Shown piece by piece: positions 12,782 through 60,546 of a stretch of 64,000 nt of DNA; positions within the stretch are counted from its first letter, which is position 1, and each line of letters opens with the position of its first letter. The notes below the pieces were generated by a model, which ran no database searches, was not told the origin of the DNA, and worked only from the letters and a program-made list of their open reading frames with translations. This DNA comes from a virus (Duplodnaviria; Heunggongvirae; Uroviricota; Caudoviricetes). The translations under genes and the position numbers were made by a program. The DNA is taken from positions 1 through 64,000 of IMG/VR virus record IMGVR_UViG_3300028887_000002. One strand, 5' to 3'.

Positions 12782-13705
12782 TTATTTATTAAGTTCGTTA
12801 AAAATTTGCGCCATCTCCTTTAAGGTTAGCCTGCGTCCGATTGTTATTTTCCGTCCACAGACTTTACTATCACTTTCGTTTGTTTCACCCGTCCTATCCT
12901 CCAATATGACTTCGTGATAGACCGCATTTTTATCATAATAGTAGTTGAAACAATCCAACGGGTTCAAGCAGGCGTGGAAACCGCACTTGCATAGTTTTGC
13001 ATCATCACAGACATAAGTCTTGCCTTCTTCGTATTGGAAGTCACGGCAAGTCATGTTGGCATTGAAGCCTTTATAAGCGATATGACCTTGTGGTTGCCTC
13101 TTTATGCTCGTACCATAAAATGCACATCCTCCAATACGTGTTACCGAATTAGGGATGTTAATTGATGTAAGTCCGCTACAATCATTAAATGCACACCATT
13201 CAATTTCCGTCACAGAATCAGGAATGTTTATTGAAGTTAATCCTGTGCAACGTCTAAATGTATAACCGTCAATTTTCGTCACAGAATTGGAAATGTTTAT
13301 CGAGGAAAGGCTACTACAATCATCAAATAACCAAACGCCAATTTCAGTCACGGAATTAGGGATGTTTATTGAGGAAAGACTACTGCAACCTTTAAATGTA
13401 TAACTACCAATTTCCGTAACAGAATCAGGAATGTTAATTGAGGTAAGGTTGCTGCAACCACAAAATGCCCAACTGTCAATTTTCATTACTGAATTAGGGA
13501 TGACGATTGAAGTAAGGTTGCTACAAATCGAAAATGCCTCGCAACCAATTTCCGTCACCGAATTAGGTATGTTTATTGAGGTAAGTCCGATGCAACCTTG
13601 AAATGCCCTACCGCCAATTATCCTCACACCATCAGGTAGCATAACATCGCCGCCTTTGCCGTTGTACTGCACAAGTACATTATTTTCTATTTTGAACTCT
13701 TCCAT
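12782..13705 (-). CDS. BspA-type LRR_5 protein fused to a C-terminal phage domain
   Basis: About seven 23-aa repeats (LTSINIPNSVTEIG..AF..C) plus AYKGFN..MTCRDFQYEEGKTY..CGFHAC.NPLDCFNYY. Confidence 0.85.
   Translation of the reverse strand: MEEFKIENNVLVQYNGKGGDVMLPDGVRIIGGRAFQGCIGLTSINIPNSVTEIGCEAFSICSNLTSIVIPNSVMKIDSWAFCGCSNLTSINIPDSVTEIGSYTFKGCSSLSSINIPNSVTEIGVWLFDDCSSLSSINISNSVTKIDGYTFRRCTGLTSINIPDSVTEIEWCAFNDCSGLTSINIPNSVTRIGGCAFYGTSIKRQPQGHIAYKGFNANMTCRDFQYEEGKTYVCDDAKLCKCGFHACLNPLDCFNYYYDKNAVYHEVILEDRTGETNESDSKVCGRKITIGRRLTLKEMAQIFNELNK
13130..13620 (-). repeat. 69-bp coding tandem repeats (LRR units)
   Basis: Recurring ...CCAATTTCCGTCAC.GAAT.AGG.ATGTT.ATTGA... at 69-bp spacing. Confidence 0.8.
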
Positions 13706-14402: not shown

Positions 14403-15560
14403 TTAGTTAATATTATTGTAGCACTTATTGTTAAGCACATTCAAGATTACACTTCCACTTTGGAATTCATCTAATGTTGAGCAGTTAGTGTACGCCATAG
14501 CACTTCTGAGATATGCCTTGAAATTGTCAGCGAACTCATTTACAGTGTATTCAATAGGAATTTCTCTCTCAAGACCTTCTGTAGGTCTTACTGGCTTGCT
14601 CTCATCTATTGCTTGCTGAGCCTGTGGAGTAGACATTCCATAGATAGTCTTCGTAAATCCCCTGGCCTTTGCAGTTCTAGCGTTGTCACGCTTTTCGTCT
14701 TCACTTATTGAAGAGTCATACAACATATTCTTCCAGAGTCCGTCTCCCATGAAGTTGGATATTGATTTCTCGGCGAGACCATTATGATAAAATTCACGCC
14801 ACAAGTAGTCAGCATACTTGAAAGTTGGTTCAGCCGCACTCTCATAGCACTTTGCTAGCATCGTTCCCATCATGACATAATCTGCTCCAAGTGCCAATGC
14901 TTTAATAGCCTTTCCATAATCGTCTATTCCACCATCAGCAACTATCTTAGCGTTTAGATTTTTATTGAATTTGATTCTCTTGCATTCATTTATCAATGAA
15001 GCCATTGGATAGTGGACTCCAGTGTTTGTAGAAGTCAAGCAACAAGCACCTCCACCAATTCCTACTCTGATATAGTCAGCTCCTGCTCTTGATAACTTTT
15101 CAAATGTTTCTTCATTTGCGATATTCCCAACCATTATTTCCATATTTGGATAATTCTTTTTAGCAATCTGTATCAATTCTGGAAGTTCTCTGATATGTCC
15201 ATTAGCAATATCTATACAGACATTATATGTATAGTTCTTAAATTCTGTTGTAATCATCAATTTTTCTACAAAACATTCTCTAAATTCTTCTAAGCCGAAT
15301 GCTACCCATTGAACCAAGTCCTTCATACACTTCATTCTGGTTGTTATATTAATATTTCTTGGAATTATCGGTGTAATGCCATTCTTCATAAAGTAAAAGA
15401 AATTATGTTCATCACAAACTGCTTGCATAGGAGCACAGAAGATAGGCAATTTATTTATACCATCAACAAATGGATTGCATTCTTTACGTGAGTTCTTTCC
15501 TTGTACTTCTGGAATTATGCTCACATCATCTAATGAATAGTTAATTTTCTTTTCAAGCAT
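14403..15560 (-). CDS. IMP dehydrogenase / GMP reductase family protein (no CBS domains)
   Basis: PIFCAPM, CIDIANGH, MVGNIA, IRVGIGGGACCLT, ADGGI, ALALGADYVMMG, YGMS, LRSAMAYT. Confidence 0.9.
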   Translation of the reverse strand: MLEKKINYSLDDVSIIPEVQGKNSRKECNPFVDGINKLPIFCAPMQAVCDEHNFFYFMKNGITPIIPRNINITTRMKCMKDLVQWVAFGLEEFRECFVEKLMITTEFKNYTYNVCIDIANGHIRELPELIQIAKKNYPNMEIMVGNIANEETFEKLSRAGADYIRVGIGGGACCLTSTNTGVHYPMASLINECKRIKFNKNLNAKIVADGGIDDYGKAIKALALGADYVMMGTMLAKCYESAAEPTFKYADYLWREFYHNGLAEKSISNFMGDGLWKNMLYDSSISEDEKRDNARTAKARGFTKTIYGMSTPQAQQAIDESKPVRPTEGLEREIPIEYTVNEFADNFKAYLRSAMAYTNCSTLDEFQSGSVILNVLNNKCYNNIN

Positions 15561-15579
15561 ACCAAAATAATTTTACATA

Positions 15580-15723
15580 TTATTTTTTTTTTAAATTTCC
15601 ACTATCTTCAAAATATTTCCAAGTTTTTATTTCTTCAAGTTGGTTTGGTGTTAGGTTTTCCAACCACTCCTTGCAATATTTGTGATATCGCGTGTGGTTG
15701 TCCCTTAAAAACACTTTCTGTGC
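15580..15723 (-). pseudogene. orphaned 3' half of the gene at 17918, split by the TnpB element
   Basis: AQKVFLRDNHTRYHKYCKEWLENLTPNQ...KKK* joins in frame to ...STDEIY. Confidence 0.7.
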
Positions 15724-15810
15724 ATATACCGTACAGCGAAATATACGAAAAATTAGGAAACTTCTTCATATATTCCCACCAATCGTTTGATTGTCTGTAC
15801 GGTACGACAA
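15724..15810 (-). ncRNA. putative omegaRNA scaffold (3' part) of the 538-aa TnpB
   Basis: 10-bp stem TACCGTACAG/CTGTACGGTA (15795-15804 with 15727-15736) enclosing two hairpins and ending at the element boundary. Confidence 0.55.
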
Positions 15811-17382
15811 CAGAACATCCTTTACCTTCTCCTTTTTCAGTTTCTTCGGCTTGTATGCCCCGTTGCTAACTTGTTTTAAGAGCCTATCCCGCAACACGGT
15901 TACGGTCGCTCTGTTTCTTATGTTAACTGATGCGTTGTGGTCAGCATTATCTGTATGACCGCATTCAACGCAACAGAAATCTTCCTGTGTTAGTCTGTTC
16001 CCGTTATCAATGCAACCGCAGACAGGACAGGTCTTTGATGTGTAATACGATTGCACGGTTGAAACTGCAATACCATATTTCCTTCCAATGTGTTCGATTT
16101 CGCCCTTCAGTGAACTAATCCGCAGGAACTTCACAATATCATTGAAGTTAATATCATCCAACAATTCGTCCGTTACATAAGTCTTTCCAAAACCATTGTC
16201 AAGGTTTTCAAGGACTATATGTGTTACACCGCCGAGCATAAGGTTCTTGCACATCGTTGAAATCAACTGTTGTTCCGACTTGAGCATCTTGTTCCTTAAA
16301 GTATCATATTTCCGTTGTCTGCGCTTGCCGATTACATAGTCGGGGTTCTGTGACTTGAATAAGTCGGTCTGCCGTTTCATACGGCAGTAGTCCTCGACCA
16401 ATTCCCTGTCGTAGTCGTAGGTTGTACCATTTGATACGCTGAACAGGTTGTGCTTTACATTCACATCAATACCAACGGTCTTGTCGTTATCGGTCACCGT
16501 TGGTATATACCTTTCGCCGTCCTTGACCAAGTTAACCTTGGCCTGCTTGTGCCACTCGTCAAACGAAACGACATACTCATAGTCGTTAGATTTCTTTGCA
16601 TAGTCGCTCATACTGCCGTGGTAGTCCTTGCTGAACTTGACTGGTATGTCCATTGACTTCCGAGTGGGGAAACTCAACGAGATAAAGGCGTTTATCTCCG
16701 AATTGTAGTTTTTGTTGTATGCAACAATCCGTTTTTTTCTTGAACGCCCAGCGAATGTCAGCGACTTGAACTCAATGGGCTTTGCATACCTTTTCAACAT
16801 TCGTCCGCGCAACGACAATGCAAGTCTCATTAGTCGTTCAAAACCTAACTTGCTACACTTGCCAAGTATGTTCTGGTAGAACTTCGCTTTCTTCTCATCA
16901 AGACCACCATTGGCAAGTTGGGTGTTGATATATTCAAGTGTATGTTCATTTCCGTATCTTGCAAGGTAGGTCAAACAAATAGTAAGGTCAGTTGACTTCC
17001 GTTCAAGCCTTACGGACTTCATATCGCCTTTTGAATGCCCCTTGCAGTTGCGCTTGTAGAAGTCAAAACCGAGGAACGAAACCTTCTCGAATTTCATTCG
17101 CTTGGTTATAGCATCAAACTTGTTCTGATAGGCATCAATGACCTGCTGATATAATTGCTTGTCAAAGTTCGAGTTGATAACTTGTTTATACTTGCCACGC
17201 ATCTCTTTTACGAAATTCAGTGGACTTACATCGAGGTAGCGCAGAATATCCGAGCACACTTCTTTACTGATGAGGTTCTTATGTTCACGGATGGATACGG
17301 CAAGGTCGTACAACTCGTCATATTTCTGTCGAGTCAAGTCATCGCTTACGAAGACCTTTGTGTATTTGCTTGCTATCTCCAT
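15766..17382 (-). CDS. tnpB: large TnpB / Cas12f-like RuvC nuclease (538 aa)
   Basis: VGIDVN (RuvC-I), IVLENL (II), TSKTCPVCG..FCCVECG Zn ribbon, NADHNASVNI (III). Confidence 0.85.
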   Translation of the reverse strand: MEIASKYTKVFVSDDLTRQKYDELYDLAVSIREHKNLISKEVCSDILRYLDVSPLNFVKEMRGKYKQVINSNFDKQLYQQVIDAYQNKFDAITKRMKFEKVSFLGFDFYKRNCKGHSKGDMKSVRLERKSTDLTICLTYLARYGNEHTLEYINTQLANGGLDEKKAKFYQNILGKCSKLGFERLMRLALSLRGRMLKRYAKPIEFKSLTFAGRSRKKRIVAYNKNYNSEINAFISLSFPTRKSMDIPVKFSKDYHGSMSDYAKKSNDYEYVVSFDEWHKQAKVNLVKDGERYIPTVTDNDKTVGIDVNVKHNLFSVSNGTTYDYDRELVEDYCRMKRQTDLFKSQNPDYVIGKRRQRKYDTLRNKMLKSEQQLISTMCKNLMLGGVTHIVLENLDNGFGKTYVTDELLDDINFNDIVKFLRISSLKGEIEHIGRKYGIAVSTVQSYYTSKTCPVCGCIDNGNRLTQEDFCCVECGHTDNADHNASVNIRNRATVTVLRDRLLKQVSNGAYKPKKLKKEKVKDVLLSYRTDNQTIGGNI

Positions 17383-17512
17383 GCTACATTAAAAAAGGAG
17401 GTAAAATCCGTTCGACAAAGTGCAGCAAGAGCCGATAGGGACTACCTCCGTTGGTTTTATGTTTAATATCTTTCCGAATGTCTTGCTGCTTCATTCGTCT
17501 TATTAATAAATA
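17383..17512 (-). ncRNA. structured 5' leader of tnpB behind a TATTTAT motif
   Basis: Crossing stems GCAGCAAGA/TCTTGCTGC and GGAGGTA/TACCTCC followed by U6. Confidence 0.45.
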
Positions 17513-17522
17513 GTGTAACTTT

Positions 17523-17918
17523 TCAAAAATTACAAGTTTTTTTATAGATTTCGTCTGTACTTAATATTATTCCTTTCTCTTCACCGTCAACGAGAATAGT
17601 TATGTCCCTTCCGTAGGAGTTTTCGTTTTGGTTGAACTGTTTGCAGTATTCAATGGCCTTGTCCCTGTCATAGAATATTGTCTCAACATAATCGGAATGT
17701 TCCTCGCTTCGTGTCACGACATATGCTGTCCTGTATTGTTCGTCCTTTTGTTGCGCCATTTCAGTTAATGCGCCTATTAGGGCTTCCTTGTTTTCTTTCA
17801 ATCCGTCAAAAACTTGAGTGTAAGTTGGTGCAAGTTCCTTAGCCTTCTCTGCGTTTTTGTACCACTTTTTTGAAAAATCCTTCATCATAATTCTTCTAGT
17901 TTTTTCCAGTATGTCCAA
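17523..17918 (-). CDS. hypothetical protein, truncated by the element (native C-terminus at 15580-15723)
   Basis: In-frame reconstruction. Confidence 0.6.
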
Positions 17919-22352: not shown

Positions 22353-24155
22353 ATGTATACAAAGAACAGAGAGGCTATAATGGAAATCAAGCGCGGTCAC
22401 ACTGGAACGGGACTGCTGATAGAGAATGATGGACATATAGTCGGCAACAACGATACCATTAGGCAGATAAAGGAGGATATTGAACATCACGACAAGTTTG
22501 TTATCCCCGACAAGTTCGTGGTGAGCGCCGTGTTCCAGAAGTACGGCATAAAGAACGCCAACGGAAGGATATATCCCGAAGCAATATTGAAGAGGGAAGT
22601 TGAGAAGTACATCAACGACAGGGTACGTACCCGTGGGTCGATAGGAGCCTTGGACCACCCGAGTTGCCAACTTTCAGGCACCAGAATATTAACCAAATAC
22701 GGGTGGAAACTCATTGAAGATATCACCACTGAAGATGAGGTATTAACCCTCAAAGAAAACAAGGATATTGAAATCAATAAGGTCAAACGCAAGATAGAGT
22801 CGGATTACACAGGAAAATTGATTTGTCTGAAGGGTAGGTTTATTGACTTGAAGGTGACCCCTAACCATAAGTTCCCAGTATTTGACCGTCACAAGAAATG
22901 GAAAGGATTTTATACCGCGCAAGAAATATTGGACGGTTTGATTCCTGACCAGTCACACTGCTATTTGTATAAGCAAGGAAACTGGATTGGCGAGAATGAT
23001 GAATTCTTTACATTACCTGCATTAACGGCTGAGGAGATTGCAAGGATACCTTCAAATACACTGAAGGAAAAATATTCACATGAATTACAAATCCCTATGG
23101 ATGTGTGGGCTAAGTTTATGGGTATATACTTATCAGAAGGATGTACTGATTTGCCTGACAAAGTTTCAATATTCCAAAGAAAAGAAAGTGTTTGTGATGA
23201 AATTAGGGAAATGTTAACAGAATTCCCGTTAAAATATACTGAATATTACCGTAATAATACATCAATTTTTGTTGTATGTGATATGCGTTTAGTAAAGTAC
23301 CTCAAACAGTTTGGTATTTGCTACGATAAATATGTACCTTATGAACTGAAGAAACAGAACAAGGAAACATTGAGACTCTTCTACGACTGGTTTGTTATGG
23401 GTGACGGAAGAGGTCGTGGCTTGAATGCTGAAAATTATTACACTGATGATGTATTCTCAACTTCCCAAAGACTTGTTATGGACTTGAATGAGATTCAATT
23501 AAAAATTGGTTATAATGGAGCATATCATATGGTAGAACGCAATTACGACAGAGTGATTGAAGACCGTGTGATTAAGGCTGAAAACTCTTCCCCTATGCAC
23601 TTCACCTACCGTTCACACAATCAGTATATTTTGCTTGGGAAGATGAAAGTAACTGAAGAGGATTATGAAGGCAAGGTTTATTGCATTGAATGTAAGAACC
23701 ACGACTTCTACACCATGGGGCATGACGGGCATTGCTTATGGTCGGGAAACAGTACCACATTATCAGGACATGATGTAAGTCATATCATAACCAACCTTGA
23801 ATGGGTTGGACAGACCTTGATAGGTGAGATGGAACTGCACCTCACCCCTGGCTACAGGCGTTACGGCATTGCAAGCACAAGCGGTGACCTGGTTGCAAAC
23901 ATGCTACTTGACAACATACATGTGGGTGTATCGTCGAGGGGTGTTGGAACCGTTGAGGATAAGTTCGGCGTTATGATGGTTGGTGATGACTATGAACTGC
24001 TCTGCTGGGACGTTGTAATGGAACCGAGTTCACCTGGTGCGTGGATTGGCATGGATAGGAACGAACTGCAACAGTACGTTGAATCAGACCAAAGCCGTAA
24101 TGACAAGCCGATTGTCACTGAAAAGATACAGCGAATAAAACAAATATTGGTTTAG
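22353..24155 (+). CDS. T4 gp21-like prohead core protease with intein
   Basis: KNANGRIYP, GALDHP, VSH, VGVSSRGVG, WDVVMEPSSPGAW; probable start 22380. Confidence 0.9.
   Translation: MYTKNREAIMEIKRGHTGTGLLIENDGHIVGNNDTIRQIKEDIEHHDKFVIPDKFVVSAVFQKYGIKNANGRIYPEAILKREVEKYINDRVRTRGSIGALDHPSCQLSGTRILTKYGWKLIEDITTEDEVLTLKENKDIEINKVKRKIESDYTGKLICLKGRFIDLKVTPNHKFPVFDRHKKWKGFYTAQEILDGLIPDQSHCYLYKQGNWIGENDEFFTLPALTAEEIARIPSNTLKEKYSHELQIPMDVWAKFMGIYLSEGCTDLPDKVSIFQRKESVCDEIREMLTEFPLKYTEYYRNNTSIFVVCDMRLVKYLKQFGICYDKYVPYELKKQNKETLRLFYDWFVMGDGRGRGLNAENYYTDDVFSTSQRLVMDLNEIQLKIGYNGAYHMVERNYDRVIEDRVIKAENSSPMHFTYRSHNQYILLGKMKVTEEDYEGKVYCIECKNHDFYTMGHDGHCLWSGNSTTLSGHDVSHIITNLEWVGQTLIGEMELHLTPGYRRYGIASTSGDLVANMLLDNIHVGVSSRGVGTVEDKFGVMMVGDDYELLCWDVVMEPSSPGAWIGMDRNELQQYVESDQSRNDKPIVTEKIQRIKQILV
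22665..23750 (+). mobile_element. intein with LAGLIDADG homing endonuclease (362 aa)
   Basis: HPS|CQLSGTRILT, VTPNHKF, FMGIYLSEG, FVMGDG, VYCIE...WSGN|S. Confidence 0.9.
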
Positions 24156-37912: not shown

Positions 37913-39308
37913 ATCGTTTCTTTGATTTGACGCTGCAAATATACAACGTCTTTTTGAAACCACCAAACTTTTTTTGAAAAAAATAAATATTCTTGAAATT
38001 ATATATAAATATTGTTATATTTATATATAAAACGACTTTCATTATGAAGGAACTACGAGGTTACAGGTACAGGATTTATCCGAACGCCGAGCAGTCAACC
38101 ATAATTGCACGGACAATAGGGTGCGCCCGCCTCGTATATAACCTTCTCCTTGCGGACTTCACCTCCCAACTGGGCGGCGAGGAAAAACCCAAACTCCATG
38201 AAGTGACGTACTTCAAGAAGGACAGGCCGTTCTTGTCAGAAGTGGATTCGCTTGCTTTGGCAAACGCCAAACAGAACATCCAGACCGCCCTGACCAACTG
38301 GAGCAAGTCCAGGAAAGGTCAACGCAAGGGCAAAAGGGTCGGGTTCCCGACTTTCCACAGCAAGGCGAAATCCCGCCTGTCCTACAAGACGAACAACCAG
38401 AACGGAACCGTGAGGATTGAAGGTAATTACCTTAAACTGCCGAAGGTAGGCTATGTCAAGATTGTCCTTGACAGACCACCCGCTGGCGACATACGCTCGT
38501 GTACCGTGGAGCAGACAAGGGATGGAAAGTTCTTCGTGTCCCTCTGCATGGAGGTTGAGATTGAAACGAAACAAAAGAACAAACGATATGACGACCTCAA
38601 GGTCGTGGGGGTGGACATGTCATTCCCGCACTTCTCGGTCGACTCGGAAGAAATATCTGGCGATACGAAAGCCAAGTACGTCAGGCAGTACCGTGAGAAC
38701 GAGAAAAAGTTGAAACGGCTTCAACGCTGGGTTTCAAGGAAGAACAAGGGTTCTGCGAACTACGCGAAGGCGAAGCGGAGGCTTGCCGAACTGCATGCCT
38801 ACATTGCCAACTGCCGAAGGGATTTCTGCCACAAGACGTCCCGATGGTACGCGGAGAACTGGGACGTTATTGTCCTTGAGGGCATAAACATGCAGACGAT
38901 GGCACGGCTGCACAACAACGGCAAGTCCGCCAACGACCTTGGGTTCGGGATGTTCAAGGGATTTCTTGAATACAAGTGCAGGGAGACTGATTCCATCGTG
39001 ATGTATGTGGACAGATGGTTCGCAAGTAGCAAGACCTGCCACTGTTGTGGGTATAAGAAGACCGACTTGGAATTGAGGGACAGGAAGTGGACTTGTCCGC
39101 AGTGCGGAACGCACCACGACCGCGACCTGAACGCAGCCTTGAACCTCAGGGATTATTTTTACAGGGTCGTCACGGAAGAAAACTACAATACCGCAGGGAC
39201 TGCGGGAATTTACGCCTCAGGAGAGGCGACCTCTACGTTAAGGGAAACCTTAAGGCAAGCCGCCTCATTGAACGAGGAAACCCCTTCCTTCAGGTGGGGG
39301 TAGTTCAT
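37832..39308 (+). mobile_element. IS605/IS1341-type tnpB-only element inserted 3' of TTTAA
   Basis: LE and RE share CCTTCCTTCAGGTGGGGG (37851-37868, 39283-39300); precise removal restores a 57-aa minus-strand ORF; no target duplication. Confidence 0.9.
38044..39303 (+). CDS. tnpB: TnpB RNA-guided endonuclease
   Basis: YRYRIYPN..GCARLVYN, VGVDM, IVLEGIN, SSKTCHCCG..WTCPQCG, HDRDLNAA; ATG at 38044 after TATTTAT at 38018. Confidence 0.95.
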   Translation: MKELRGYRYRIYPNAEQSTIIARTIGCARLVYNLLLADFTSQLGGEEKPKLHEVTYFKKDRPFLSEVDSLALANAKQNIQTALTNWSKSRKGQRKGKRVGFPTFHSKAKSRLSYKTNNQNGTVRIEGNYLKLPKVGYVKIVLDRPPAGDIRSCTVEQTRDGKFFVSLCMEVEIETKQKNKRYDDLKVVGVDMSFPHFSVDSEEISGDTKAKYVRQYRENEKKLKRLQRWVSRKNKGSANYAKAKRRLAELHAYIANCRRDFCHKTSRWYAENWDVIVLEGINMQTMARLHNNGKSANDLGFGMFKGFLEYKCRETDSIVMYVDRWFASSKTCHCCGYKKTDLELRDRKWTCPQCGTHHDRDLNAALNLRDYFYRVVTEENYNTAGTAGIYASGEATSTLRETLRQAASLNEETPSFRWG

Positions 39309-58429: not shown

Positions 58430-58861
58430 ATGAAACGACAACCAAGAATTTCAAAAGAAATCAAATTAGATGATTTGAATTTCAAAAGTACCTACGGAAC
58501 TTTTAACCGTAACATTCCAAATGTAATTTATATCAATGGGAAGACAAAGGTTAAACCTATCGTTGAAAAGACTGACTATTCAATGGATTCAAGGAATATA
58601 AAGAAATCCTTCACAAATTTTGTTGATAAAACCGTGAAGGATAATGATACTTTCTTTGATGAATATATATGTACTTGCGATGTAAGCGAGAATGGTCTGG
58701 AATATGGGAAGAGAAGCAATCTGAAGTATTCGGTTTTCCTAAAGCCCAAGGAATTGAAACCGATTGAGGATTATCTTTCTGTTATCAGTAACTTTAATGC
58801 AACCGTAACTAGTTTTCTGAGTGAAGAGTTGAACGAAAGAGGCTTTGAGACTAGGTACTAG
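58430..58861 (+). CDS. hypothetical protein
   Basis: Start moved to MKRQPR, downstream of the promoter. Confidence 0.6.
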   Translation: MKRQPRISKEIKLDDLNFKSTYGTFNRNIPNVIYINGKTKVKPIVEKTDYSMDSRNIKKSFTNFVDKTVKDNDTFFDEYICTCDVSENGLEYGKRSNLKYSVFLKPKELKPIEDYLSVISNFNATVTSFLSEELNERGFETRY

Positions 58862-60546
58862 TTTTCGGTTTCCTCTTCCACCTCAGCAGTACACATGACA
58901 CCATTACATTCAAAAGAGACCGTCTTTGCTGAAGGATTCAGTGGTGTCCAGTACTTAATGTGGATGAGTTCTCCGTCAACATTGCCCCACTTGCACGGCT
59001 TTATACATTTGTAGCAGTCGGTATCACCGACCAACTCGTCAATAACGTCAGGATATTCCTTGCATGTCACCTGAAAAGCCTTGTTGAGCATTCGTGCTTG
59101 CCATTTATTAACTAACTTTACAAGCCCAATCATTCGGTTGAAATTAGACAAACCAACTTTCAACCAGCCGAACTTTGTTTTCTTGATGGGTATGAGACAG
59201 TGGTCGATTTTGAACCATAGTTTAGTCCACCAACTGCCACCGTACCATACGCGGTAGCCACAAAGTATCTGGGCAAGACCCCCATCCCAAAAGGTTAAAT
59301 ATTCGTCACGATAGCAATTGCCACACCAGTAACCCTTTCCATTTTGTCTTACATATATGATATGATTTGGAACTGTACAACAATATACTTCGCCATCATA
59401 GTCAACCCATTCTTCGGTAAAATTCTTTATAAGTCCATGTCTTACTTTTGAAGTTTCAATCTCAACTTCTTTGTTCTTCATCCAATTTATTTCATATGAT
59501 GGTTTTTTTGATATTATTTTATGTCCACTCTCTTTTATTATTGATGTTTTATGTCTATCACGTATACGTACTCTAAATGTATCTCCACATTTCAATATTA
59601 ATTCACATACATCATCAGATAACTGTTTAGATGTTGTAGTTAATATGTTGCTGGTTTTCGCTTGGTGTCCATCCCCGATATATAAATATTCCAAAAACAA
59701 ACGGATTGACTCTTTATCGAGTTCTTTTATGAAAGAAGGAACTTTTTTATTTTCAGCACCACGTCCACAATTATTTGTAATCCATTCTCTTAATAATGGT
59801 TGGCTAAAATATTTGAAAGAGTTTGGTTTATTAGTATGAGGAATGAAGCCCATATTACTGATTAATGATTTTGCTAGTTCTGTTTCGGTATATGGGTTAT
59901 GTGCAATGTTAATTGTTGTTTTATAAGTAAATCCTTCAGCAACATAAAACCCTAAAAATTTCAAAAAGGGTTTCATTTCAATTCGTACTTCACTGTAATG
60001 GTCGATTCTTGTGTACGGTTTACTTTTCCGATTAACCTTTACAATTTTTTCAGTTGCAGGAATTACGAAAAATTCTTCAGGTGTTTTGCCGTCCCATTTT
60101 ACATCCTTCTTAAATCGCTTGTCTTGCCCAAAATAAGTGTCAGGTGTTGTTAATTCAAATGGGTGACACCGTTTTTCTTGTTTTTTGAAATATGAGCCTT
60201 TGCTAACATATAAATTATGATTTGGTGTTACAAGAATATCAAGCCCTCTATTCATAAGTTTATACATTTTCCCTTCATAATGATAATGTATAATATCGGT
60301 TGGGCGATTATATTCAAGATACTCACCGTCTTTGAGTGTCGCAACTTCATCTTCCATAGTTATATCTTTTATATTTTTCCAACCATTTTTAGTTAAGATT
60401 TCAGCGGAATCCGTAAAGCATCCCCACTTTTCTTTCCCACACACACCCATTCGCGCCCACTTGTGTATGCGTTTTTCAACAGCGTTTATCGCACTATATA
60501 AATTGTCGCCGTGTTCCTTAAACCAATCGTCACCCCATTCATGCAT
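58858..60546 (-). CDS. intein-containing protein of unknown function (194-aa extein)
   Basis: Extein ...VCGKEKWG|CYRDEYL... Confidence 0.75.
   Translation of the reverse strand: MHEWGDDWFKEHGDNLYSAINAVEKRIHKWARMGVCGKEKWGCFTDSAEILTKNGWKNIKDITMEDEVATLKDGEYLEYNRPTDIIHYHYEGKMYKLMNRGLDILVTPNHNLYVSKGSYFKKQEKRCHPFELTTPDTYFGQDKRFKKDVKWDGKTPEEFFVIPATEKIVKVNRKSKPYTRIDHYSEVRIEMKPFLKFLGFYVAEGFTYKTTINIAHNPYTETELAKSLISNMGFIPHTNKPNSFKYFSQPLLREWITNNCGRGAENKKVPSFIKELDKESIRLFLEYLYIGDGHQAKTSNILTTTSKQLSDDVCELILKCGDTFRVRIRDRHKTSIIKESGHKIISKKPSYEINWMKNKEVEIETSKVRHGLIKNFTEEWVDYDGEVYCCTVPNHIIYVRQNGKGYWCGNCYRDEYLTFWDGGLAQILCGYRVWYGGSWWTKLWFKIDHCLIPIKKTKFGWLKVGLSNFNRMIGLVKLVNKWQARMLNKAFQVTCKEYPDVIDELVGDTDCYKCIKPCKWGNVDGELIHIKYWTPLNPSAKTVSFECNGVMCTAEVEEETEN
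59317..60420 (-). mobile_element. intein with LAGLIDADG homing endonuclease (368 aa)
   Basis: G|CFTDSAEILTKNGWK, VTPNHNL, FLGFYVAEG, LYIGDG, VYCCTVPNH...WCGN|C. Confidence 0.9.

Follow-up and report, generated by a model that had tools for sequence, protein, structure and literature searches.

Homing by TnpB nucleases has been published for elements of both the IS605 and the IS607 type. Excision and transposition of IS607 require both transposon ends and the transposase TnpA. The published IS607 pattern consists of a GG crossover, a TGGG or GGG sequence which serves both as target and as target-adjacent motif (TAM), and a fixed right-flanking nucleotide that lies within the RNA scaffold (PMC10711439; bioRxiv 10.1101/2023.11.20.567912). 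In the present analysis a stretch of 64,000 nucleotides (the window) was investigated, which corresponds to the initial 64 kb of the IMG/VR record of a Caudoviricetes phage (IMGVR_UViG_3300028887_000002, here G000; 339,287 bp, with record ends overlapping by 127 bp). A 1.8-kb insert on its minus strand encodes a TnpB protein of 538 amino acids (aa). The original prediction described this insert as a complete element at 15724-17543 that splits one phage gene. Our analysis instead points, with a probability of about 0.8, to a non-autonomous, left-truncated derivative of an IS607-family element located between pieces of two different phage genes. Most probably, this cassette has kept a promoter-like leader, an intact tnpB gene and a right end encoding the omega-RNA, and has lost tnpA together with the left-end tip that carries the GG crossover site. 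As judged from its sequence, the locus is a known kind of system (TnpB with omega-RNA, IS607 kind) in an uncharacterised lineage with a long N-terminus.

The locus was compared with the IS607 systems of TnpB and right-end RNA (reRNA), namely ISXfa1 and the CboIStron TnpB. Common features are a serine TnpA, which is encoded by relatives of the cassette, a GG crossover, a [T/A]GGG target and left flank, a fixed base-paired right-flanking nucleotide, an RNA overlapping the 3' end of tnpB and the D-E-D residues of the RuvC domain. In contrast, the 538-aa protein is about 130 aa longer, contains a second helical bundle inserted in its WED/REC half, and scored 29 bits with the NCBIfam model IS607_TnpB and 82.5 bits with guided_TnpB (cut-off 100). 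The window copy also differs from IS607 and CboIStron elements by the absence of tnpA and of the left-end tip. Neither a group I intron nor a known omega-RNA was matched in Rfam at E ≤ 1 over 15500-17700. Splicing of the IStron kind would have nothing to splice, since the flanks do not belong to one gene.

The tnpB open reading frame (ORF) is located at 15766-17382 on the minus strand. It matched the Pfam family PF07282 (Cas12f1-like_TNB) at 6e-16 and OrfB_IS605 weakly, in agreement with the predicted nuclease of TnpB/Cas12f size. An alignment of 69 sequences, together with alignments to solved structures, confirmed all three predicted acidic residues of RuvC: D306 and E392 show no variation, and the conservation of D481 reaches at least 90%. 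The zinc ribbon cysteines C452, C455, C471 and C474 are conserved in the same alignment. Thus, the assignment as a TnpB nuclease with a RuvC triad stands on the Pfam, NCBIfam and Protein Data Bank (PDB) matches and on these conserved residues. By sequence, the protein is a predicted TnpB-type RNA-guided nuclease with its own putative guide RNA. Cas12f proteins gave the best sequence matches among solved structures (9nzq, 2.8e-13 when the sequence was used alone and 1.6e-28 with the 69-sequence profile), and ISDra2 TnpB was matched at 1e-4 by phmmer against the PDB with the single sequence and at 9e-6 with the profile.

The distinctness of this lineage from the other TnpBs of the window was borne out by the NCBIfam model IS200_TnpB, which gave 327 bits for the TnpB at 37993-39303 vs 41 bits for the 538-aa protein. 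Among 8,000 candidates scored, 1,741 relatives were detected at E ≤ 1e-5. Of the clusters in a 50%-identity library, 145 matched at E ≤ 1e-30, and most matches were 510-600 aa long and aligned end to end. Contigs with relatives reach 396 kb in length, and relatives are also present in IMG/VR records. They are mostly found on large viral or metagenomic contigs, consistent with the predicted phage-resident lineage. No close relatives were found among 185,579 species genomes by a scan sensitive to close relatives only; therefore this null result is weak evidence for a restriction to phages. The dN/dS ratio of tnpB was 0.08-0.12 against five relatives.

The family assignment was based on these relatives. 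Copies with 84-89% identity carry a 72-aa ORF, a MerR-helix-turn-helix/resolvase protein of about 205 aa, a variable ORF and then the same TnpB. The serine TnpA of the relatives scored 198 bits with the NCBIfam model transpos_IS607 (NF033518, cut-off 110). At 12 of 55 loci a full serine TnpA was encoded upstream of TnpB, and 37-97-aa remnants of it were present at 8 more. The partner was of the serine type in all 12 cases and thus not that of an IS200/IS605 element. A Y1 TnpA was seen on the contig of one relative beside a different, 428-aa TnpB. The left ends of TnpA-bearing copies (11 loci with 10 distinct flanks, those of L010 and L046 being identical) start directly after TAGGG, AAGGG, GGGGG, CAGGG, GTGGG, ATGGG or TTGGG. 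The base following this GGG is A in a large subclade and T in the subclade of the window. More than 30 right ends finish with ...TTCTTCGGA or ...CTGTACGGT (CGGA or CGGT), and their flanks differ beyond this point. In the subclade of the window nine independent right flanks diverge immediately after ...ACGGT, which places the right boundary at 15728 and not at the predicted position 15724. This right end is intact, and it lies at a TAGGG-type site inside the phage gene termed g78, which fits a GG crossover. Judged by these features the TnpB lineage is of the IS607 type, because the serine TnpA partner, the GGG flanks with their GG crossover, the CGG ends and a last base fixed and paired within the scaffold match published IS607 features.

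The genes on both sides of the insert were compared with those of related phages, which were obtained solely via protein look-ups in Logan, ENA and JGI. Four relatives are free of the element (L004, L006, L072 and L073), one carries the cassette (L005), and a paralog is present in the same genome at 281.3 kb (L002). The search for empty alleles called for by the original prediction was thus successful, and there are element-free relatives that contain sequence matching the guide. Upstream of the insert, the window encodes a member of the g172 family (17523-17918, minus strand; 121 aa from the ATG at 17888 or 131 aa from a TTG). On the other side the 3' fragment of g78 remains, from Y32 to the stop (15580-15727, minus strand), and the N-terminal 31 codons are not in the window. 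The full g78 comprises 78 aa in L004, L005, L006 and L072 and occurs in an 85-aa form in L073. In the element-free relatives dUTPase is followed by g78, up to two small genes, g172, then the IMPDH-like gene and finally g197. Their g172 genes stop two codons past ...DEIY, and the IMPDH-like gene starts 11 nucleotides (nt) later. The supposed second half of the split gene (AQKVFLRDNH..., the C-terminal 46 residues) corresponds to residues 33-78 of g78, located upstream of g172 in the relatives. The homologs of the upstream ORF all end with ...STDEIYKL and a stop codon or, in occupied alleles, at an altered C-terminus, and none of them runs into AQKVFLRDNH. In the window the native ...DEIYKL end of the upstream gene is replaced, and its final codons and stop come from the inserted DNA.

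Consequently, the element does not split one phage gene: the two halves are the separate genes g172 and g78 in L004, L006, L072 and L073, the very finding which the original prediction had named as its refutation. The arithmetic of the in-frame join was correct (375 nt and 144 nt), but the join connects two unrelated genes. It is an accident of the junction placement, because the second half is part of g78 and separate from g172. The upstream gene family itself is a mosaic (window 17748-17918 and L004, L006, L072 and L073), in which a conserved C-terminal module of about 70 aa is found on at least four unrelated N-termini.

The right end of the cassette encodes a predicted omega-RNA (reRNA) scaffold of about 185 nt (15728-15912, minus strand), which was delimited by the alignment of 33 loci and by covariation and which overlaps the last ~145 nt of tnpB. 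RNAalifold, applied to 33 right ends and 210 columns, yielded 55 pairs in eight helices. These comprise a 5' hairpin in the coding region (15905-15889), a 14-bp long-range stem, a closing stem and two inner hairpins (the first at 15793-15780). In the closing stem ACCGTACAG at 15803-15795 pairs with CTGTACGGT at 15736-15728 and encloses the two hairpins. This stem had been predicted and proved to covary across the 33 relatives. Standard pairs were found in 97.0% of the cells vs 42-47% when the partners were slid by 1-3 columns. Double-sided changes were observed at 23 pairs, a number that no shuffle out of 500 attained; the slid controls gave 5-12. A structured right-end RNA accompanying TnpB was thereby corroborated as a covarying scaffold that ends at the right boundary and overlaps the 3' end of tnpB. 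Only two copies of the RNA were found in the genome by an nhmmer profile, in the window and in the paralog at 283007-283211.

The fixed flanking base (T15728, column 210) pairs with column 120 as UA in 22 sequences and as AU in 9 and is unpaired in 2. Since T15728 covaries with its stem partner, it belongs to the scaffold and the guide starts at 15727 with ATATGCACAGAAAGTG.... The predicted guide, taken as the first 20 nt of the right flank (15708-15727, minus strand), reads ATATGCACAGAAAGTGTTTT; its start follows from the divergence of the flanks and its length is inferred. The earlier guide register was off by 4 nt, as the guide is now predicted to begin with ATATGCACAG at 15727. The proposed TAM ending in CTAT had to be abandoned as well, because the family is of the IS607 type with GGG-type target sites. 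From the flanks of the insertion sites, GGG is the predicted TAM. In the intact g78 of L004 and L072 the guide matches at 18 of 18 positions, followed by one mismatch, and the match is preceded by TTAGGG+A. The g78 of L073 contains the protospacer with one further mismatch, and the GGG is present. No second copy of the 20-nt guide flank was found in the phage's own genome. The right end of the paralog L002 (G000 283195-283923) contains an ATG (ATGTTTAGTTCTTCGGA) which opens a 242-aa ORF reading into the flank. This ATG is conserved in the large subclade and is ATA in the subclade of the window; in L002 it may restart an interrupted gene.

At the left junction the window agrees with the alleles lacking the element as far as ...GAAAT(C/T)TAT (three A's are ambiguous) and continues with AAAAAAACTTGTAATTTTTGAAAAGTTACACTATTTAT.... 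In autonomous copies the homologous counterpart of the block after the junction sits immediately upstream of the first ORF, about 70-85 nt inward from the left end. Neither the window nor L005 has the left-end tip of about 85 nt, in which the GG site and a conserved ...AACTG... motif are located. Position 17543 is therefore a truncation point and not, as had been predicted, the end of the transposon. The paralog L002 retains a left-end-like tip that starts after AAAGG; its similarity to the window sets in at 17543 only as a result of the cut in the window copy. The sequence ...ATCTAT-AAAAAAA (the hyphen marks the junction) does not fit a GG crossover, because the left-end tip is deleted. The flanks of the 17543-type junctions (CTAT, AATG and AAAT) share no common motif. 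No serine TnpA is encoded across the whole phage genome. The window copy is probably immobile, because the tip is missing, the genome lacks a serine TnpA and the known mechanism needs both.

The leader (161 nt, 17383-17543, minus strand) was recognized from the homologous block in the left ends of the relatives and from the comparison with L002 and L005. It is 98% identical in L002 and 88% in L005 and is absent from autonomous copies. A promoter-like block extends from 17543 to about 17500 and contains TATTTAT at 17512-17506; this block was not listed in a scan for the sigma-70 consensus. Across the genome, 54 of 334 crude gene calls have TATTTAT on the sense strand within the 60 nt upstream, vs 20 with the motif on the antisense strand; its distance to the ATG is mostly 24-42 nt. 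The motif is likewise found ahead of the Y1 tnpA gene of this genome and ahead of the first ORF in autonomous IS607 relatives. Eight nt before the tnpB ATG ends a hairpin formed by GGAGGTA (17449-17443) and TACCTCC (17403-17397) with a following U6 (17396-17391), an arrangement which looks attenuator-like in sequence. A second stem, GCAGCAAGA/TCTTGCTGC, crosses the first one, and its pairing is kept in L005 by two compensatory changes. The minimum-free-energy fold of the leader has z = -1.2 and its stability is not unusual. A 46-nt motif at 17543 was considered as an IS605-type left-end hairpin usable by the Y1 TnpA of the genome. This candidate was rejected, since serine-TnpA elements contain this block in the interior of their left ends and neither right end has a comparable hairpin.

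The origin of the junctions was approached by comparing the window with L005. Both copies have the left junction in common, their cassettes are 87% identical and their right junctions differ. In the window the right end is joined to ATATGCACAG (g78 codon 32), and in L005, which entirely lacks the IMPDH-like gene, to TGCCATACATGG (codon 3 of g197). Several deletions surround the cassette copy of L005; on this contig (SRR29188442, 1-3200) a truncated dUTPase is fused to g78. The element-free alleles read TTAGGGA-ATATGC at the g78 site and ATGGG(A/C/T)-TG(T/C)CA at the g197 site, where L072 has exactly ATGGGT. Both right junctions look like genuine IS607 insertions, because GGG precedes both sites in the element-free relatives. 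The reading of GGGA before both native right-flank sites as a deletion microhomology was dropped, since an IS607 GGG target explains it better. In the simplest case, the present arrangement would have originated by a deletion at an AAA microhomology or by recombination between element copies of related phages. Probably, the shared left half was joined to both right ends by recombination between copies or by deletions beside the right end. More speculatively, the left junction is compatible with a deletion of about 100 nt between AAA microhomologies after an insertion near ...TTTGGT before the ATG of the IMPDH-like gene.

Functionally, TnpB would load the scaffold of about 185 nt ending at T15728, followed by the guide starting with ATATGCACAG. 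It would cut DNA that carries the GGG TAM, one fixed base and a match to the guide, as is the case in intact g78 alleles. In a mixed infection such a cut might be repaired from the cassette-bearing genome, by which the cassette would spread or be retained in analogy to published TnpB homing. By this analogy, homing between co-infecting phages may be plausible. The constraint on tnpB seems to persist after the loss of mobility, because the tnpB genes of the window and L005, two copies with the truncated left junction in common, have a dN/dS of 0.10 at a dS of about 0.67, unless mobile copies have intervened by gene conversion.

Several observations weigh against the reading as a truncated IS607 derivative that retains its function. 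All known relatives have g78 located upstream of the g172-type gene, and the order of the window was seen in none; an extra rearrangement or recombination is therefore needed. Gene conversion by mobile copies might account for part of the purifying selection seen in the comparison of the window with L005. The flanks informative for the TAM in the window's own subclade number only four. The g78 site of L005 reads TTAGGAT and not TTAGGGA, and therefore not all relatives would be cut. Finally, the ancestral g78 allele of the window, predicted as ...AGGGT-ATATGC, was absent from every database searched. An exact scan of viral contigs for the protospacer and an exact scan of viral and metagenome contigs for the leader motif gave zero matches. 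Megablast of the 4.7-kb region against the INPHARED phages found no match. With tblastn only distant TnpBs were retrieved, none with at least 80% query cover (the best covered 59% of the query at 24% identity).

The long N-terminus was analyzed on confident AlphaFold models, whose predicted local distance difference test score (pLDDT) was 91 (whole protein) and 93 (residues 1-298). From the N-terminus, the domains are WED, the REC helices (18-95), strands of WED (100-129), a further bundle of helices (132-198), the barrel of WED up to 292, RuvC and a CxxC...CxxC zinc ribbon. The model shows the WED/REC core of TnpB, to which residues 100-129 add a beta-hairpin and residues 132-198 a second bundle of four helices. 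It shows the WED-REC-RuvC-TNB fold, with Z scores of 15.5-16.6 to the TnpBs of ISDra2 and ISFba1 over 313-348 aligned residues. In alignments of the whole protein with VIA-align, CasLambda and CasLambda2 ranked first (Z 20.8-20.9, 451-472 residues, root-mean-square deviation (rmsd) 5.9-6.7 Å), followed by AsCas12f, ISFba1 TnpB and ISDra2 TnpB (Z 15.5-16.8, 313-372 residues). For the N-terminal half alone CasLambda aligned over 252 of 298 residues (rmsd 8.2 Å, Z 13.1), and Cas12f tied at Z 13.1 with 175 residues. The resemblance of the model to CasLambda suggests a lead and is not a finding.

With the TnpBs of the IS200/IS605 type (ISDra2) and the solo TnpBs of the IS1341 type the protein shares the core fold (Z 15.5-15.9), the guide from the right flank and the logic of homing. 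It differs in the weak sequence match (1e-4) and in that the close relatives examined have no Y1 TnpA partner and follow no rule of insertion after the TAM. Cas12f (Cas14) provides the best sequence matches among solved structures and is of similar size, but the window locus has neither a CRISPR array nor a trans-activating CRISPR RNA, and its guide is the flank of the transposon. CasLambda (Cas12l) gave the longest collinear match (472 of 538 residues, Z 20.8; 252 of 298 in the N-terminal half) and is likewise found in large phages. In contrast, identity is 16%, the rmsd amounts to 5.9-8.2 Å, the profile match is weak, and CasLambda has about 750 aa and is accompanied by CRISPR arrays.

This resemblance enters into an alternative explanation, according to which the cassette is an exapted phage tool whose guide, reassigned by recombination at the right end, cuts competing phages or host DNA to the advantage of the phage, as a step towards CasLambda-like effectors. 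One left half is combined with two guides, derived from g78 in the window and from the beginning of g197 in L005, both of which match an intact GGG-flanked gene in relatives; purifying selection seems to have followed the loss of mobility, and the fold agrees better with CasLambda and CasLambda2 than with TnpB or Cas12f. We nevertheless consider this explanation unlikely. The targets are plain insertion sites, as in ordinary TnpB homing, and no CRISPR or omega-RNA array was found near any of the 55 family loci. Moreover, the profile of the RuvC part is nearer to Cas12f (1.6e-28) than to CasLambda2 (8.6e-11), and the N-terminal half alone does not separate CasLambda from Cas12f. The sole candidate in the 55 loci, a CRISPR-like repeat near L054, turned out to be an exact 66-nt tandem duplication at the end of a contig.

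It appears quite unlikely that the cassette is a decaying, immobile relic without present function, in which tnpB and the RNA are intact merely through the recency of the truncation. The missing tip and tnpA, the lack of a serine TnpA in the genome, the reduction of g78 to a fragment and the deletions around the copy in L005 would fit such decay. Against it stand the tnpB dN/dS of 0.10 at a dS of about 0.67 behind the same truncated junction in the window and L005, and the retention of all scaffold helices. The leader is 98% identical in the window and L002 although their TnpBs are 63% identical, which suggests maintenance or exchange. A complete 1.8-kb IS200/IS605-like element (15724-17543), inserted after a ...CTAT TAM in one gene and using the guide GCACAGAAAGTGTTTTT, is highly improbable: the flanking ORF pieces join in frame, the similarity of L002 begins exactly at 17543 and the Y1 TnpA of the genome is preceded by a similar 46-nt motif, but all four element-free relatives assign the flanks to two different genes, the upstream gene stops 2 codons past the junction with the next gene 11 nt on, the TnpA of the relatives is of the serine and not the Y1 type, ends and targets are of the GG/GGG type with the right boundary at 15728, and L002 has extra left-end-like sequence upstream of the shared block.

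The predicted absence of a transposase and a CRISPR array was correct for the element and its direct vicinity, and no CRISPR array was found between positions 10 and 24 kb of the window; a Y1 TnpA is encoded elsewhere in the genome (338198-338602). It belongs to an IS605-type unit that spans the ends of the record (G000 338132-339287 joined to window 1-~700), with a leader block like 17543-17500, then the Y1 tnpA and then a TnpB ending at window position 671. In total, seven ORFs with a TNB domain are present in the 339-kb genome, at about 0.3, 15.9, 38.9, 237.8, 264.9, 282.8 and 294.1 kb. Weak Pfam matches to intein splicing domains were obtained for the window ORFs 22353-24155 and 58858-60546, one of which is prohead-protease-like and the other also has a LAGLIDADG match; these may be further mobile elements in the phage. 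A gene with BspA-type leucine-rich repeats (12782-13705) contains a 69-nt tandem repeat in seven copies at 13146-13628.

As the locus demonstrates, rearrangement around what is left of a transposon can create the false impression of a gene split in frame. The lineage of the 538-aa TnpB is abundant (the 145 clusters given above), compact and scores under the curated family cut-offs. It has been proposed that phage type V effectors derived from TnpB independently of the cellular ones (PMC12141684). The likeness of the 538-aa TnpB to CasLambda fits this proposal, and a phage CRISPR effector as the nearest structural match bears on such a separate origin. Since occupied, rearranged and empty alleles of one site are available together with a predicted TAM and protospacer, homing or exclusion between phages is directly testable. 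A further idea, which we regard as unlikely, is that IS607 TnpBs of about 540 aa with a CasLambda-like extra REC bundle are immobile jumbo-phage cassettes kept by selection, in which recombination at the right end reassigns the guides to genes of rival phages. If true, the ~540-aa TnpB cassettes would be a weapon for exclusion or homing between phages, and possibly the stock for CasLambda-type effectors.

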